Origin: Acidimicrobiales bacterium | GTDB lineage: Bacteria > Actinomycetota > Acidimicrobiia > Acidimicrobiales > Iamiaceae | Length of the DNA: 64,000 nt | Reading direction: 5' to 3' | Assembly: GCA_046594195.1 (NCBI GenBank) | Contig: JBKJPY010000030.1 | Span: 5,839 to 69,838, forward strand | Shown: positions 38,168 through 43,694 of the stretch, in pieces | How positions within the stretch are numbered: position 1 is the stretch's first letter | Layout of the letters: every line of letters starts with the position of its first letter | Program-made: the position numbers and the translations under genes | The notes under the pieces: generated by a model | What the model saw: the letters and a program-made list of their open reading frames with translations, nothing else | Database searches by the model: none | Told to the model about the DNA's origin: nothing

Positions 38168-38461
38168 ATGACCGATGACGAGAGCCGACTGGGGATCCGG
38201 GAGCTGCGCGGGCGTCTGGCGTCGCTCGTGCGCCGTGCCGGGTCCGGGGAGCGCATCGTGATCACCGTCGCCGGACGACCCGTCGCCCAGCTCGGCCCGG
38301 TCGAACCAGCGGACACTCGCGTGACGATCGACGACCTGGCGGCCCGCGGCCTGCTCGAGCCGGCGCGTCGCGGTGACCGCCCGGCGGATCCCGACACCCG
38401 CGTCGACAACTGGACGGGCGGACGCTTGGACCGGGCGCTGCGCGAGGTGCGTGGCGCATGA
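38168..38461 (+). CDS. vapB: Type II antitoxin, Phd/YefM family
   Basis: LGIRELRGRLASLVRRAGSGERIVITVAGRPVAQLGP. ATGA overlap with the PIN gene. Confidence 0.88.
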   Translation: MTDDESRLGIRELRGRLASLVRRAGSGERIVITVAGRPVAQLGPVEPADTRVTIDDLAARGLLEPARRGDRPADPDTRVDNWTGGRLDRALREVRGA

Positions 38462-38862
38462 CGCTTGCGCTGGACACCTCGGCCCTGCTCGGGCGGTACC
38501 TGTCCGGGCCGCACCGCGCCGTGGTGCTCGACGCCATGGCGGCCGACCCGGTGTGGTGCGCCTCCGCCCTCGCCCAGGCCGAGGCGCTCGGCATGGTCGA
38601 CCGGGTGTGCGACGTCCCCACCGACGGAGACCGCGTTCGGCGCGCCCTGCGCGACGACTGGGAGCGCATCCACGTCGTCCCCGTCGACCAGCGCTGCCTC
38701 GACCGTGCCGCGGAGCTCACCCGCGAGCAGCCCCTGCGAACCGTCGATGCCCTCCACCTCGCCGCCGCCGACCGGCTCCCCCGCCCCACCACCTTCCTCA
38801 CCTTCGACCCGCGCCAGATCCCCGTCGCCCTCGCCCTCGGGTTCGACGTGATCTCGTCCTGA
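38458..38862 (+). CDS. vapC: Type II toxin, PIN-domain VapC
   Basis: LDTSAL, AEAL, LRTVDALHLAAA, and FLTFD; the acidic residues are retained. Confidence 0.88.
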   Translation: MTLALDTSALLGRYLSGPHRAVVLDAMAADPVWCASALAQAEALGMVDRVCDVPTDGDRVRRALRDDWERIHVVPVDQRCLDRAAELTREQPLRTVDALHLAAADRLPRPTTFLTFDPRQIPVALALGFDVISS

Positions 38863-39109: not shown

Positions 39110-39721
39110 ATGGACACGTTGATCTGGTCGGATGCCGATGCTGAAATCCACATGGTCGTGGTGGGTTCGTTCGAGAACAACGTCTACGTGCTGCGGTGCA
39201 AGGAGACCGGCGACGCCGTGCTGCTCGACGCCGCCAACGAGCACGACCGCCTCCTTGACCTGTGCCGGGCACTGAACGTGAAGGAGGTGCTCGAGACCCA
39301 CGGGCACTGGGACCACATCCAGGCCGTGCCGCAACTGCGCGACGCCGGCTATTCCGTGCATGTGACCGCCGAGGACGCCGGCATGCTGCCGAGCTACGAC
39401 GAGATCCTCGCCGACGACGACGTGCTGTCGGTGGGCCGGCTCCGCCTCCACACGATGCTCACGCCCGGCCACACGCCCGGTTCGATGTGCTTCAAGCTGG
39501 TGGACAAGCCGGTCGTGTTCAGCGGCGACACGCTCTTCCCCGGCGGAGTCGGCAACGCCACGTTCGAGGGCGGCGACTTCGACACGCTCATCCACTCCGT
39601 CGAGGACCGGCTGTTCCGGCCACTGGCGGCCGACACCCTCGTGCTCCCCGGCCACGGCGACTCGACGACCATCGGTACCGAGTCACCGCACCTGCAGGAG
39701 TGGGTCGACCGCGGCTGGTGA
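39110..39721 (+). CDS. MBL-fold metallo-hydrolase (glyoxalase II-like)
   Basis: THGHWDH, TPGHTPGS, FSGDTLF, and PGHG. Confidence 0.92.
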   Translation: MDTLIWSDADAEIHMVVVGSFENNVYVLRCKETGDAVLLDAANEHDRLLDLCRALNVKEVLETHGHWDHIQAVPQLRDAGYSVHVTAEDAGMLPSYDEILADDDVLSVGRLRLHTMLTPGHTPGSMCFKLVDKPVVFSGDTLFPGGVGNATFEGGDFDTLIHSVEDRLFRPLAADTLVLPGHGDSTTIGTESPHLQEWVDRGW

Positions 39722-39775
39722 CCCCATCGGGCCTCCGGCGCTGGATCCGACGTCGACCGTGGGACCATCGAGGCC

Positions 39776-40201
39776 ATGACCGACGCCGACGTTCCGCAAC
39801 CCACCGAGGTGAAGCCGACGCCGGCGGAGCTGCGCCCGATCGACGACCGGCCGGTGCATACGGCCGACCTGCCCGACACGCCCACGCGCGACCGCTCCAT
39901 CCCGGCGACGGCGTGGATCGAAGCACCGCACGAGCTCCGGACGCTCGCCGACGACCTGCCGGCGCCGACCACCGGGAGCGACGCCCGCTACCTGCGGCGC
40001 ATCGGCCCCTGGCTGCTCTGGCGAGCCGGGCCCGCGAAGGGGGCCGACAGCCGCTACTGGGTGTGCCTCGCCGCTGACCTGGAGACGCAGTTCACCTTCG
40101 ACCTGTTTCCCGACGGCACCGGGGCCGGCCGCGGCCCGACGCAGGACCACGTCCGGTTCCGGACCTGGAAGGAAGACCTCCGCGATCACGCCGAGGGGTG
40201 A
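39776..40201 (+). CDS. Hypothetical protein
   Basis: 141-aa ORF with coding-like composition. No family recognised. Confidence 0.65.
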   Translation: MTDADVPQPTEVKPTPAELRPIDDRPVHTADLPDTPTRDRSIPATAWIEAPHELRTLADDLPAPTTGSDARYLRRIGPWLLWRAGPAKGADSRYWVCLAADLETQFTFDLFPDGTGAGRGPTQDHVRFRTWKEDLRDHAEG

Positions 40202-40226
40202 CCCTGGACGTCCGGGCGGGTGAGGG

Positions 40227-40844
40227 CTACGACCTCTCTTGGCTGGCCGGTTCGGCGAGGCGACGAAAGCATGCCGGGTCGACCGGCGCCATCGAGGCCG
40301 CCCGTCGCGCCGAGCGGAGAAGACGGCCGTGGAGCTGGTGGTGATCGATGCGGAAGACGTAGCTGTCCCAGGACCGCGCCCGGTGCCACTCGCTCTCGAT
40401 CCGGTGCACCTCGGGTCGGAGCCGCTTCAGGAGCATGTTCAGCACGGGCGCCTGGTACTCCGTCGTATGGAGGTAGATGGCGCAGAGCCCTCGTTCCAGC
40501 GCACCGCACACGACGCCGAGGGCACCAGCCGTGACGAGGACGCCCGACGACCCCGGCTCGGCCACCACCGCCAGTTCCGCCGTGGCTTCGTCCGGCCGGT
40601 ACCGGTCCAGCGTCACCGCGCCACGGACGCTACCGTGCGAGTCGACGACGGCACAGGCCATCCAGCACCCGACCGACGCGGTGGCGAACTCGTTCGGCAC
40701 GGGCGAGAGCCCCTTGAACCGCCAGTCGTCGAAGCGATCTGTCCCCGTCTCCAAGCGGTAGAGCTCGTCGAGGTGGTGCAGATCCAGGGGGACGACGACG
40801 CCCAGCGACCCCGGCGCGCTCGAGGGCACCGAAGCAGCCGTCAT
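40227..40844 (-). CDS. Divergent RimJ/RimL-like GNAT-fold protein
   Basis: ATGA overlap with the upstream GNAT. 'WRFKGLSP', 'AELAV', and C-terminal 'RARSWDSYVF'. Confidence 0.6.
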   Translation of the reverse strand: MTAASVPSSAPGSLGVVVPLDLHHLDELYRLETGTDRFDDWRFKGLSPVPNEFATASVGCWMACAVVDSHGSVRGAVTLDRYRPDEATAELAVVAEPGSSGVLVTAGALGVVCGALERGLCAIYLHTTEYQAPVLNMLLKRLRPEVHRIESEWHRARSWDSYVFRIDHHQLHGRLLRSARRAASMAPVDPACFRRLAEPASQERS

Positions 40845-41326
40845 GTGCCATGACCCAACCGGCCGAAGGCGTGCACGTCCCAGCTCCGCCCGCGCCGGAA
40901 GACGTAGTCCGTGAGCGTGCCCTCCGGTTCGAAGTGGCTCGAGACGACCTCGTAGTCCACCCCGACCAGGTACGCCGGGAGCAAGAAGCCGACGCGGTGC
41001 AGGCCGAGGGTGTGGAACGCGTGGTCGAGCGATGCCTTCGTCAGGCCCTCTGCGACGAGCGGGTCCGCCACGGACAGGCGCCAGAACTCGAATCGAGCCG
41101 CACGGTTCCGGAAATCGATGTCCACCAGCCGGCCCACCCCAGCGAGCGCGGCGCCGTCGACCCCGACGAACTGGGTGGATCCGCCCCGCCACAACAGGCG
41201 GTCGAAGTCCTGGAGCGACCAGTTCGTCGCCAGGTCGTCGTGGAGGTCAGCGCCGTGCTGCTGGCGCCGATAGGCCTCCCAGACGAAGGTCGTGTCCGAA
41301 GGCTGCAGCGGTCGGACGGTGGTCAG
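40841..41326 (-). CDS. RimJ/RimL-like GNAT-fold protein with probable CTG start
   Basis: VRPLQPSD, 'LLWRGGSTQF', 'DIDFRNRAARF', 'AFHTLGLHRV', and 'EGTL.DYVFRRGRSWD'. No in-frame ATG/GTG nearby; CTGA overlaps the upstream stop. Confidence 0.68.
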   Translation of the reverse strand: MTTVRPLQPSDTTFVWEAYRRQQHGADLHDDLATNWSLQDFDRLLWRGGSTQFVGVDGAALAGVGRLVDIDFRNRAARFEFWRLSVADPLVAEGLTKASLDHAFHTLGLHRVGFLLPAYLVGVDYEVVSSHFEPEGTLTDYVFRRGRSWDVHAFGRLGHGT

Positions 41327-41907
41327 CAGGAGTAGTGGACCTCGTCCACCAGCTGTGCGTAGGTGAAGTCCACACCGGTCTGCCAGCAGTGCTTGTAGGC
41401 GTTGCCGGTGCGGTACATGCGGATGCTGACCTTGAGGTGGTACCAGTCGTGCAGCGACGTGTTCTGGCCGATCAGCTGGCTGCTGTACGAGCCGTCGGCG
41501 TCGGCGTGCACGGACCCCGTGCCCTTGTAGTTCGACGGCGGCGAATACCCCGTGAGCGAGTCGCACAGCGTCTCGTTGATCGTCCAGTTCCAGTAGCACT
41601 GCCGGTTGAGGACCTGCACCCCGTTGATCTCGTCGTGGCAGCCGTTCACGCCGTCGGTGTAGGCGCGTGTGGTCAACCTCGTCTCGCCCTGGGTGTAGAG
41701 GTTGTGGGGGAAGCCCCAGCTGAGCGCCGTCGTCTTGCCGGTGAAGGTGCCGGAGCACGTGCTGGCGGAGGCCGGCGTCGCCGTGCCGATCGCCCCCGCC
41801 GCGGCCAGGAGCCCACCGAGGAGCGAGCTCGAGGCGATCAGTGCCCCTGCTCGCCGCCGAGGAGACGGCATGGTCGACGGGGATGCTGCCGTGCGAGGCT
41901 CAGTCAC
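41323..41907 (-). CDS. Secreted Cys-containing hypothetical protein (194 aa)
   Basis: RBS AAGGAGG before GTG 41907, a signal peptide ending ATPASA, and a mature part rich in T/N/Y/W with 6 Cys. Confidence 0.75.
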   Translation of the reverse strand: MTEPRTAASPSTMPSPRRRAGALIASSSLLGGLLAAAGAIGTATPASASTCSGTFTGKTTALSWGFPHNLYTQGETRLTTRAYTDGVNGCHDEINGVQVLNRQCYWNWTINETLCDSLTGYSPPSNYKGTGSVHADADGSYSSQLIGQNTSLHDWYHLKVSIRMYRTGNAYKHCWQTGVDFTYAQLVDEVHYSC

Positions 41908-42337
41908 CGGACCCCTCCTTGGCATCGAGGTGCGCCACCATGTCGCACGCGTCCTCGTCGAGCGAGATGCTCGCCCCCTGGTTCGGCCCGCCTGAGTCGA
42001 GGCGAGCGACCCCGTAGGACTCAGCCGCGTCGTTGCAGGTCCCGTCAGCGTTCCGCCCGAGGTGGTCGACGACCGCACCATCCTCGAGCGGATCGGGTTG
42101 GATCTTCCCGTCGATCGTGGCGTGGAGGAGACCGTCCTCGAGCTCGGCGGGGGGCAGCCCGTCGTCCGATCCGGGATCTTCCGAACCGGGATCACCGACG
42201 AGCGGCTGGCTCGTGTCCGTCCTCACCCCGGTCGTCGGGTTGTCCGCTGACGCGGCCATCCCCACGCCGAGCGCTGCACAGCCCGCCGCGGCGAGCCACG
42301 CCGCCCCGACCAGAACCGACCTTCTCCGAAGCTTCAT
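41900..42337 (-). CDS. Secreted acidic hypothetical protein (145 aa)
   Basis: MKLRRRSVLVGAAWLAAAGCAALGVGMAASA signal, an Asp/Gly-rich mature part, and a Cys pair. Confidence 0.7.
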   Translation of the reverse strand: MKLRRRSVLVGAAWLAAAGCAALGVGMAASADNPTTGVRTDTSQPLVGDPGSEDPGSDDGLPPAELEDGLLHATIDGKIQPDPLEDGAVVDHLGRNADGTCNDAAESYGVARLDSGGPNQGASISLDEDACDMVAHLDAKEGSGD

Positions 42338-42410
42338 CGTCCATCCGATCCCTAGGTTCCATTGACGCCCTGGGGTGGGTGGTCAGCAGCGGCCGACGGC
42401 GATGGGCTAC

Positions 42411-42444
42411 GACGGATCGTATAGTGACGATTCGTCGCAGGCAA
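42411..42444 (-). promoter_or_regulatory. SigA-type promoter with overlapping palindrome for the four-gene operon
   Basis: Minus strand TTGCCT(42444-42439)-17 bp-TACGAT(42421-42416). Imperfect palindrome GACGGATCGT-N6-ACGATTCGTC at 42411-42436. Confidence 0.55.
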
Positions 42445-42479
42445 GGACTTCTTCGAACATGGGAGCGAGGGAGGCGCGG

Positions 42480-42512
42480 CGAGGGAGACTCGGCCAACGC
42501 CGGCCTCCCTCG
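42480..42512. terminator. Hairpin downstream of msrAB
   Basis: CGAGGGAG...CTCCCTCG with an inner CGGC/GCCG stem. Confidence 0.5.
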
Positions 42513-42518
42513 TCGGGG

Positions 42519-43694
42519 TCAGGACGCTGGGGCAGGATCCTGGTCGAGGTCGAGGGCACAGCTGTTCATGCAGAACCGGAGGCCTCCCTGGTCGCGAGGC
42601 CCGTCGGGGAAGACGTGGCCGAGGTGGCTGTGGCAGCGGCCGCAGCGAACCTCGGTGCGGGTCATCCCGTGCGAGTGGTCCTCGATGAGCTCGATCGCGG
42701 TGGGCGACACCGCCTCGGTGAAGCTCGGCCAGCCGCTCCCAGAGTGGAACTTGGTGTCGCTCGTGTAGAGCGGGTTGCCGCAGGCCATGCAGCGGTAGAG
42801 CCCCGGCTCCTCGATGTCGGTGTACGCACCGGCGAACGCCCGCTCGGTGCCGGCCTCGCGCAGCACCTGGTACTGAGCGGGGGTGAGCCGCTGCTTCCAC
42901 TCGTCATCGGACTCGGGGAGCGGCTTGAGCTTCACGTCGTTCGTGGGATTCGTTTCGGTCACGGGGGCCTCCTCATCGGTGGCGGCAGGGGCGGCGTCGG
43001 CCACCTTGGATGCGGCGTCGGCGTCGAGGTCGACGCCGAGGTCGGCGAGCGGGCCAGGGAGCTGGCACACGACACCGGTTCCCGACAGGCCGCAGTAGCC
43101 GCCCGGATTCTTGTGCAGGTACTGCTGGTGGTACTCCTCGGCATAGAAGAACTCGCCCGCCGGCGCCAGCTCGGTGGCGATGGGCCGCTTCCCGGCATCA
43201 GCCAGCGCCGTGCCGAACACCTCGAACGCCGAGGTGGCTTCGGTCAGTTGCTCGTCGGTGGTCACGTAGACCGCAGAGCGGTACTGGGTGCCCTGGTCGT
43301 TGCCCTGACCGTTGACCTGGGTGGGGTCGTGCTCGGTGAAGAACACCTCGAGCAGGCGCCGGTACGAGAGCTGCTCGGGGTCGTAGACCAAGAGGACGGC
43401 CTCGGTGTGGCCGGTGCGGCCGGTGCAGGTCTCGTTGTAGGTCGGGTTCTTGGTGAAGCCGCCGGCGTAGCCGACGGCGGTGGCGAACACGCCGGGAAGC
43501 CGCCAGAAGATGCGCTCCGCACCCCAGAAGCAGCCCATTGCGAACACGGCAACCTCGTGGCCCTCGGGCCACGGCGGCACGATCGAGTTGCCGTTGATCG
43601 CGTGGACGCCGCTGATGTCGAAGGTGGGCTCGTCGTGGCCCGGCAGCGCCGTCTCGGCGGTGACCATCTCGGGCTTGCTACGGCTGAACAGCAT
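42519..43694 (-). CDS. msrAB: Bifunctional peptide methionine sulfoxide reductase MsrA-MsrB
   Basis: MsrA: GCFWGAE, GHTEAV, DPTQ...QG.D.GTQYRS, AEEYHQQY. MsrB: GTERAF, GWPSF, RTEV.C..C.SHLGHVF.DGP, RFCMNS. Confidence 0.95.
   Translation of the reverse strand: MLFSRSKPEMVTAETALPGHDEPTFDISGVHAINGNSIVPPWPEGHEVAVFAMGCFWGAERIFWRLPGVFATAVGYAGGFTKNPTYNETCTGRTGHTEAVLLVYDPEQLSYRRLLEVFFTEHDPTQVNGQGNDQGTQYRSAVYVTTDEQLTEATSAFEVFGTALADAGKRPIATELAPAGEFFYAEEYHQQYLHKNPGGYCGLSGTGVVCQLPGPLADLGVDLDADAASKVADAAPAATDEEAPVTETNPTNDVKLKPLPESDDEWKQRLTPAQYQVLREAGTERAFAGAYTDIEEPGLYRCMACGNPLYTSDTKFHSGSGWPSFTEAVSPTAIELIEDHSHGMTRTEVRCGRCHSHLGHVFPDGPRDQGGLRFCMNSCALDLDQDPAPAS

Follow-up and report, generated by a model that had tools for sequence, protein, structure and literature searches.

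A window of 64 kb (the whole stretch of DNA analysed, 64,000 nucleotides (nt), 69.7% GC) from contig JBKJPY010000030.1 of an Acidimicrobiales bacterium carries a compact operon, which encodes two putatively exported proteins followed by two proteins of the GNAT fold. The open reading frame (ORF) calls for the window gave four overlapping ORFs on the minus strand, spanning 42337 down to 40227. Gene 1 (g1, 41900–42337, 145 residues) starts with ATG, and gene 2 (g2, 41323–41907, 194 residues) starts with GTG after an AAGGAGG Shine-Dalgarno sequence and begins within g1, with an overlap of 8 nt. Gene 3 (g3, 40841–41326, 161 residues) is read from a probable CTG that overlaps the g2 stop codon as CTGA, and gene 4 (g4, 40227–40844, 205 residues) overlaps g3 by an ATGA. 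An earlier note on this DNA had described the same layout of four genes joined by 8 bp, CTGA and ATGA overlaps, and all the ORFs were found at the minus-strand coordinates it gave.

The g2/g3 junction of the window contained no ATG, GTG or TTG, and hence no canonical start for g3. In the orthologues, this junction was TTGA (L001), GTGA (L022 and L015), TGATG (L028) or CTGA (L002), and in L007 a CTGA was observed together with a GTG 9 nt downstream. The N-terminal RPLxPxD motif of g3 was in frame and conserved in all orthologues compared (L001, L002, L007, L015, L022, and L028). Because of these junctions and the in-frame motif, the best reading is that g3 starts non-canonically, probably at the translationally coupled CTG or by re-initiation. 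The CTGA junction of the window (CTG at 41324–41326) recurs independently in L002. The automatic gene call P0004 shortens g3 to 117 residues.

The ratio of nonsynonymous to synonymous substitution rates (dN/dS) against close relatives was 0.21 for g1, 0.15–0.26 for g2, 0.27–0.47 for g3, and 0.24–0.38 for g4. Purifying selection thus acts on all four genes. The GC content of the operon and its GC content at third codon positions (GC3) matched those of the neighbouring genes, which rules out a recent horizontal transfer as far as composition can tell.

The signal peptides of g1 and g2 were assigned by inspection. That of g1 (MKLRRRSVLV...MAASA↓DNP) ends at ASA↓D and leaves a mature protein of 11.5 kDa with an isoelectric point (pI) of 4.05 and two Cys, in agreement with the secreted acidic protein with two mature Cys that had been proposed before. 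The mature part begins with an acidic Pro/Gly/Asp linker of about 40 residues, followed by a domain of about 75 residues that holds the two conserved Cys. The residues G69, D76, P83-L84, D86-G87, C101, Y108-G109, D127, and C131 were common to L001, L007, L018, and L022. No Pfam or NCBIfam family was detected for g1 when every family member was scanned at E ≤ 5. The match of g1 to the TAT-signal model of NCBIfam was weak (E = 0.063), and the g1 of L022 has RSR instead of RR. A lipoprotein assignment by the AAGC box was also considered and ruled out, since L018 and L022 lack its Cys and the box departs from the canonical form.

The signal peptide of g2 is 49 residues long and consists of a 16-residue n-region, an RRR, and an Ala/Gly/Ser h-region that is weakly hydrophobic and ends at PASA↓ST. 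Every g2 homologue showed the twin Arg, an n-region of 16–25 residues and a weakly hydrophobic h-region. Mature g2 (about 145 residues, 16.3 kDa) contains six Cys, some of which lie close to its N- and C-termini. It is rich in Thr (12.4%), Tyr (7.6%), Asn (6.2%), Trp (3.4%), and also Ser, with only 4.1% Ala, so that the computed composition reproduced the T/N/Y/W-rich, Ala-poor secreted protein of the earlier note. The motifs KTTA, TDG, CH(D/E)EI(N/D)G, CY(W/F)N, PPxxYK, and DE(V/I)H were invariant in the family. K58 and K128 were invariant as well, among a total of four Lys in the mature protein.

Scanning of five g2 family members gave no relevant Pfam match at E ≤ 5 and no NCBIfam match, and the g2 profile returned only signal-peptide noise from the PDB sequences. 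The statement that neither g1 nor g2 belongs to a recognised family was thereby upheld in Pfam, NCBIfam and the PDB sequences. In the same three collections g2 did not match a known structural or carbohydrate-binding protein, an outcome the earlier note had listed as speaking against its proposal. An AlphaFold model of g2 built from a 5-sequence alignment was all-beta with a predicted local distance difference test (pLDDT) score of 42. Foldseek with this low-confidence model found nothing at E ≤ 1e-3, with template modelling (TM) scores below 0.26, and the model was discarded. Run on the four proteins and on their relatives, PADLOC gave nothing above threshold.

Relatives of g2 were very few. 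A word search of 5.8 billion sequences returned two matches, and an exhaustive HMMER search of 1.84 billion cluster representatives returned only three, P0002, P0007, and P0008, with identities of 76%, 46%, and 39%, respectively. One locus was found among 185,579 species-representative genomes, in an Acidimicrobiales metagenome-assembled genome (MAG). The tblastn search of g2 and g3 against plasmids gave no match. Where relatives existed, g2 was better conserved than the other three genes, with 88% identity to L001 compared with 66% for g3 and 71% for g4. The expectation of a variable gene 2 in the earlier note was therefore not borne out, and the dN/dS of g2 (0.15–0.26) points the same way.

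The g3 orthologue profile matched SpeG structures over residues 50–158 with E = 8.5e-8. As a single sequence, g3 showed weak matches to Acetyltransf_3 (E = 0.07) and PseH (E = 0.007), and its Acetyltransf_3 score of 14.2 bits was below the curated Pfam cut-off of 25.4. The single g4 sequence had no Pfam or NCBIfam match, and a profile of g4 with its relatives (including the paralogue described below) matched SpeG with E = 4e-4 and RimL with E = 0.027. The AlphaFold model of g4 (pLDDT 71.6, predicted TM score 0.73) had the element order beta1-alpha1-alpha2-beta2-beta3-beta4-alpha3-beta5-alpha4-beta6-beta7, which is canonical for GNAT proteins, with an extra C-terminal helix. Foldseek on this model gave 281 PDB matches at E ≤ 1e-3, led by SpeG (E = 5e-8, TM 0.56–0.70) and including M. 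smegmatis RimJ at TMq 0.60. By these profiles and this model, g3 and g4 are SpeG/RimJ/RimL-type GNAT-fold proteins. The motif RGRSWD was present in g3 and RARSWD in g4, and the description of the two as divergent RimJ/L-like GNATs sharing R(G/A)RSWD gained support from profile, AlphaFold and Foldseek evidence. Neither GNAT gene matched FemAB in Pfam or NCBIfam, the nearest relatives being SpeG and RimJ/L. No Pfam match to the HlyC family, with its conserved catalytic His/Ser, was obtained, and g1 and g2, both with cleavable signal peptides, contained no RTX (repeats-in-toxin) repeats.

Direct comparison of g3 with g4 gave E = 0.003 with BLASTP (C-terminus only) and E = 0.055 with hhalign (probability about 1%), and neither value is significant alone. 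Both profiles matched one 212-residue paralogue of relatives, with E = 3e-10 for g3 and 7e-14 for g4. The g3/g4 alignment was colinear with 18 invariant columns, and the beta4-alpha3-beta5 region was conserved. Because of the shared bridging paralogue and the common SpeG-like fold, g3 and g4 are divergent paralogues.

The GNAT P-loop, which binds the pyrophosphate of coenzyme A (CoA), lies between beta4 and alpha3 and has the consensus Gln/Arg-x-x-Gly-x-Gly/Ala (PMC4964394). The QGKGFA of SpeG aligned with DPL-VA in g3 (one-residue deletion) and with SGVLVT in g4, and the consensus was absent from g3, g4, and the bridging 212-residue paralogue. At the position of the SpeG catalytic Tyr, g3 showed Val and g4 showed Met. 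Atypical P-loops are also known from active acetyl-CoA enzymes, e.g., AAC(2')-Ic and PseH (PMC4964394), and equally from GNAT domains without activity, of which the central one of Eis is an example, and from GNAT-like enzymes using other donors (PMC4964394, PMC8339906). The non-consensus P-loops of g3 and g4 would therefore lower, without excluding, an assignment as acetyl-CoA enzymes. As both proteins lack the consensus CoA P-loop, they are at most putative acyltransferases.

The module was seen so far only in Acidimicrobiales-like actinobacteria, in metagenomes from soil, wastewater, activated sludge, bioreactor, and sediment. Close relatives with 75–93% g2 identity (L001, L002, and L007–L014) had all four genes. 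In a group with about 45% g2 identity, the Acidimicrobiales MAG L022 held the complete set of four, and L015, a short contig, carried the 3' end of g1, g2, and part of g3 before the contig ended. The junctions of this group were GTGA and GTGA, and g3 and g4 overlapped by 20–32 nt in L022. The start/stop overlaps at g1/g2 and g2/g3 were thus kept down to about 45% g2 identity. The neighbourhoods of two secreted proteins and two GNATs that the earlier note had suggested looking for do exist in lineages down to this identity.

The flanking genes differed between lineages. In the window, the operon lies between msrAB and a conserved gene for a 141-residue protein; in L022, the flanks were an M23 peptidase (a divergent neighbour) and an MDMPI_N protein; and in L018, a nitroreductase lay upstream and an AMP-binding enzyme downstream. 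Because the four genes stay together across lineages despite different flanking genes, they form a co-inherited, translationally coupled module. All g3/g4 homologues with the upstream flank on the contig followed g1- and g2-like genes (the contigs L011, L014, and L027 end before g1, or before g1 and g2). One extra g3/g4 paralogue was found, and it adjoins a different exported pair. GNAT homologues lacking secreted partners, which the earlier note had regarded as evidence against its view, were thus not seen among homologues with an upstream flank. A metagenome scan with the g4 profile returned four close relatives only.

The most distant group, with 39% g2 identity (L018–L021), carries a g1-like gene (31% identity, E about 7e-7) and a g2-like gene with 4 nt between them, and then, 146 nt further on, a single larger GNAT-containing gene. 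The C-terminal half of this larger protein (327–406 residues) matched the joint g3/g4 profile with E = 1.4e-13. The N-terminal half of the L018 protein was weakly g3-like at E = 0.03–0.1, which is not significant. In L018 and L020 only the C-terminal half is a significant member of the family, and a fusion of g3 and g4 in this lineage is a weak lead. In L018 (5018–7787), an ORF of 196 residues overlaps the GNAT-containing gene and is followed by a small lipoprotein and the AMP-binding enzyme. On our own reading, the N-terminal part of this ORF may be a carrier-protein-like helix bundle, in which the phosphopantetheine-attachment Ser is absent and which has no Pfam support.

Upstream of g1, in a gap of 180 nt, a regex scan found the SigA-like promoter TTGCCT-N17-TACGAT (42416–42444, minus strand). 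It was the sole match to TTGNNN-N16-18-TANNNT on both strands of the 64 kb window. In the relatives the −10 element TACGAT was invariant, and the −35 element was TTGCCT or TTGCAC. An inverted repeat, CGACGAATCGT-N6-ACGATCCGTCG, with 11-nt arms and one mismatch (42410–42437), overlaps the spacer and the −10 element and is a putative operator. Inverted repeats of equal quality occurred at about 0.15 per 200 nt in the window, so this repeat alone is only mildly unusual. Its core ATCGT-N6-ACGAT was kept in L001, L003, and L007, and the outer right arm was less conserved. The SigA promoter with an overlapping palindrome had been reported before, and both elements were recovered; the promoter pattern is unique in 64 kb, but it scores 8/12 against the E. 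coli consensus and was missed at the threshold of the strict sigma-70 scan. A single match to this relaxed actinobacterial pattern in the whole window could mean that the operon has an unusually consensus-like promoter, or that the housekeeping promoters of this organism follow a different consensus.

The msrAB gene upstream of the operon was identified from its PMSR and SelR domains. Just downstream of it, the repeat search gave a hairpin with perfect 10-nt arms (42466–42512, minus strand), which has no T-tract. This hairpin is probably a transcription boundary that insulates the operon, and is a putative terminator. Contigs from two RNA libraries (wastewater and biofilm) with 96–98% identity covered 42035–42352, i.e., g1 and 15 nt of leader, which is weak evidence of transcription in relatives. 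An Rfam scan of 39500–43000 gave no riboswitch and nothing else relevant. The window has no tRNA genes and thus no integration-site signal.

Compared with the window, the relatives carry about 3.5 kb of extra DNA between g4 and the gene for the 141-residue protein. A DUF8412/OmdA (YdeI-type) gene directly follows g4 in L001 (3006–3578), L007 (2221–2823), and L003, and in L027 (704–1273) it overlaps g4 by 4 nt. This gene looks like a frequent fifth member of the operon, and it is absent from the window. In L008 (3478–5644), and also in L003 and L005–L007, an acidic lipoprotein of 244 residues is followed after 3 nt by an exported Cys-rich protein of 182 residues and by the 212-residue GNAT-like paralogue. 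The window has no such second arrangement of an exported pair with a GNAT-like protein in its interval from 40201 to 40227. The 182-residue protein carries a metzincin-like HEVGHTSSVGH (HExxH) and matched no peptidase family, and neither it nor the 244-residue lipoprotein showed similarity to g1 or g2. The second module thus parallels g1–g4 in architecture and not in sequence. In L001 (3729–5327), the islet encodes a SUKH_6/SMI1_KNR4 immunity-type protein (E = 3e-5), a DUF7716 protein, and a VanY-type D-Ala-D-Ala carboxypeptidase lipoprotein. Judged by gene content in the relatives, the site between msrAB and the 141-residue gene is a variable hotspot. The 141-residue protein itself (39776–40201, plus strand) showed 87–93% identity in relatives and no family assignment, and its stop codon lies 25 nt from that of the convergent g4.

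In L003–L006 (four independent assemblies from one study), a frameshifting deletion of 124 bp was observed in g2 (L003: 855–1000, corresponding to about 41650–41775 of the window). It stops g2 just after the signal peptide and leaves g1, g3, and g4 intact. In L007, a sister contig from the same study, g2 was intact. As P0003 is identical with and without the deletion, the event appears to be recent, too recent to inform on selection or on retention of g3 and g4.

We tentatively favour, as a possible explanation and by analogy with known systems, that the locus is an exported-effector module in which a GNAT heterodimer modifies the exported pair before export. Here the effector would be g2, as a small, disulfide-rich beta protein with a long twin-arginine-type signal peptide for export, and g1 would be its acidic co-exported partner, kept at a fixed ratio through translational coupling and most likely an inhibitor, immunity protein or chaperone for g2. 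The g3 and g4 proteins would be two differentiated GNAT-fold subunits that cooperate, probably as a RimL-like heterodimer in the cytoplasm, and would act on the exported pair before it leaves the cell. The most likely reaction would be acyl transfer onto a conserved lysine of g2 or g1, following the HlyC-type logic of RTX toxin activation, with an acyl donor other than acetyl-CoA or with acetyl-CoA bound differently. The operon would be driven by its own strong SigA-type promoter and gated by a repressor at the overlapping inverted repeat. The export route, the heterodimer, acyl transfer, effector activity, and repression are what we infer from the arrangement and from known systems. The earlier note's suggestion of a secreted toxin or bacteriocin, with GNATs for immunity or maturation, is supported in part, namely for the module, the orphan exported genes and the GNAT paralogues; its functional side stays hypothetical.

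This proposal was reached because the missing CoA elements parallel ApxIC, because g2 has invariant Lys, because the signals are Tat-compatible (Tat, twin-arginine translocation), and because GNAT proteins recur as partners of exported pairs. The toxin-activating acyltransferase ApxIC is GNAT-like, lacks CoA-binding elements and uses acyl-ACP, the acyl form of the acyl carrier protein (PMC8339906). K58 and K128 of g2 are possible modification sites. The signal features of g2 are compatible with Tat export of a protein folded, and hence modifiable, in the cytoplasm. Several points weigh against the proposal. Atypical P-loops, as described above, accompany active acetyl-CoA enzymes and inactive GNAT domains alike, and no sequence similarity to HlyC-type acyltransferases, RTX repeats or type I secretion genes was found here. 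The twin Arg is weak evidence for Tat, because a genome of 70% GC uses Arg as its default basic residue, and the six Cys of g2 speak for oxidative folding outside the cell. The fusion argument from the L018 protein is weak (N-terminal half E = 0.03–0.1), and the effector role of g2, whose model reached a pLDDT of only 42, is putative, as are acylation, binding and activity. A wider version of the idea, namely a Gram-positive counterpart to RTX activation in which P-loop-less GNAT heterodimers acylate Sec- or Tat-exported proteins before export, with each paralogue dedicated to its own effector–partner pair, seems to us quite doubtful.

Self-protection of the producer, in the manner of lysostaphin/Lif or MccE, is nearly as likely as pre-export modification. 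According to this possible but doubtful alternative, g2 would be an antibacterial or cell-wall-active effector, and g3 and g4 would protect the cell from inside by modifying a cell-envelope precursor or another target, or by neutralising effector not yet exported. The company of the operon in relatives suits such a role: the islet holds the VanY-type lipoprotein, the SUKH/SMI1 protein, the OmdA/YdeI gene, and the secreted HExxH protein; the OmdA gene is the next gene after g4 in L001, L003, and L007, and in L027 the two overlap; and an M23 peptidase is the divergent neighbour in L022. These suggestive neighbours lie in relatives, however, and not in the window. The order of effector first and GNATs after resembles toxin–immunity order, and the pair of differentiated GNAT halves, which may be fused in L018, is reminiscent of FemX/Lif, whose two GNAT domains also lack a CoA site (PMC4964394), but g3 and g4 have no FemAB-family similarity and are nearest to SpeG and RimJ/L. 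The frameshifted g2 of L003–L006 beside intact g1, g3, and g4 would fit an immunity function, although the deletion is too recent to show selective retention of g3 and g4. As a hydrolase or toxin, g2 lacks a family match, and it evolves more slowly than g3 and g4 (88% versus 66% and 71% identity to L001), unlike diversifying toxin–immunity pairs.

Rather unlikely, in our view, is a non-antagonistic envelope module with g2 as a secreted beta-sandwich protein of a binding or structural kind (e.g., one that binds carbohydrate or cell wall), g1 as its partner, and GNATs that modify an envelope amine or a metabolite as part of one and the same physiological process. The T/S/N/Y/W/G-rich and Ala-poor composition of g2, the Cys near its mature termini, and its predicted all-beta structure resemble actinobacterial carbohydrate-binding modules (CBMs), a resemblance and not a match, since no CBM or other family appeared at E ≤ 5 in any g2 family member. 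Strong purifying selection on g2 and host-like GC and GC3, with no sign of recent transfer, would agree with an envelope role, but the extreme rarity, the patchiness, and the variable islet are unusual for a housekeeping envelope function. It is improbable that the GNATs are pseudoenzymes which transfer no acyl group and assist a Tat-exported g1/g2 complex in the cytoplasm as its dedicated chaperones or proofreading factors. The redox enzyme maturation protein (REMP) chaperones serve Tat-exported redox enzymes; we know of no class of GNAT-fold chaperones, which counts against this option. The loss of the P-loop consensus and of the SpeG catalytic Tyr in both GNATs, the conserved twin Arg and long n-region of g2, and the strict coupling to exported genes would be expected of such factors. 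The Tat assignment is nevertheless uncertain in a GC-rich genome and for a g2 with six Cys, and the conserved GNAT core, including beta4-alpha3-beta5, is compatible with catalysis. That the exported genes and the GNAT genes are functionally unrelated and merely co-transcribed is very improbable. The functional link between the two pairs is a putative one, which leaves room for this view, but their adjacency persists to 39% g2 identity, the full overlapping four-gene order to about 45%, and both in different contexts; moreover, a paralogous GNAT-like gene again adjoins exported proteins.

SpeG, RimJ, and RimL enzymes act as dimers or larger oligomers. With this Acetyltransf_3 group, g3 and g4 shared the fold, the strand order, and the best profile and structural matches, together with the C-terminal EG.....(R)GR.WD motif of beta6-beta7. 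They differed in lying below the Pfam gathering threshold, in the absent P-loop consensus and replaced catalytic Tyr, and in being two differentiated paralogues, always paired and tied to exported proteins. MccE, the RimL-type GNAT that gives self-immunity within the microcin C locus, detoxifies the product by acetylating an amine; like producer GNAT resistance enzymes in general, it has a functional acetyl-CoA site and small-molecule substrates. At the present locus, biosynthetic genes are absent, and the GNATs are accompanied by exported proteins of 11 and 16 kDa.

HlyC, CyaC, and ApxIC are cytoplasmic GNAT-like proteins without canonical CoA elements, encoded in the same operon as their exported substrate, whose internal lysines they modify before export (PMC8339906). 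The present locus shares with RTX activation the logic only, a GNAT-like fold without CoA elements beside an exported protein. It differs in the cleavable Sec/Tat-type signal peptides of g1 and g2, in having two GNAT genes and the extra exported partner g1, and in the absence here of HlyC similarity, RTX repeats and type I secretion genes. In lysostaphin/Lif and zoocin A/Zif, a secreted bacteriolysin is accompanied by a FemABX immunity factor of two GNAT domains that alters cell-wall precursors (PMC4034026, PMC4964394), and FemABX domains have no CoA site (PMC4964394). The common point is an exported protein encoded beside cytoplasmic GNAT-type proteins, with the effector role here a putative one; the differences are that g3 and g4 are separate genes and not FemAB by sequence, and that g2 matched neither M23 peptidases nor any other hydrolase family. 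Polymorphic toxin–immunity cassettes pair a fast-diversifying toxin domain with an immunity gene that co-varies downstream of it, whereas g2 is here the most conserved gene (dN/dS 0.15–0.26). The resemblance to systems of an exported effector with a dedicated cytoplasmic GNAT accessory is thus one of logic only.

As found, g1 and g2 represent two unannotated protein families that have hardly any public relatives and are nonetheless held with an atypical GNAT pair across deep divergence. Modification of an exported protein by the GNAT pair, if real, would be a new type of protein acylation before export in actinobacteria. Should the pair instead shield the producer, this would be a new immunity mechanism of an enzyme type, and g2 a new antibacterial protein from soil and wastewater Acidimicrobiales. 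The module is rare, conserved, and unexplained. It is a compact four-gene system, whose practical weight is limited by its rarity and by uncultured hosts that offer no experimental handle.

Elsewhere in the window, a PIN-domain (VapC-type) ORF was observed at 38458–38862 on the plus strand (Pfam PIN, E = 4e-11), flanked by genes for an acyl-CoA dehydrogenase and a protein of the metallo-beta-lactamase fold.

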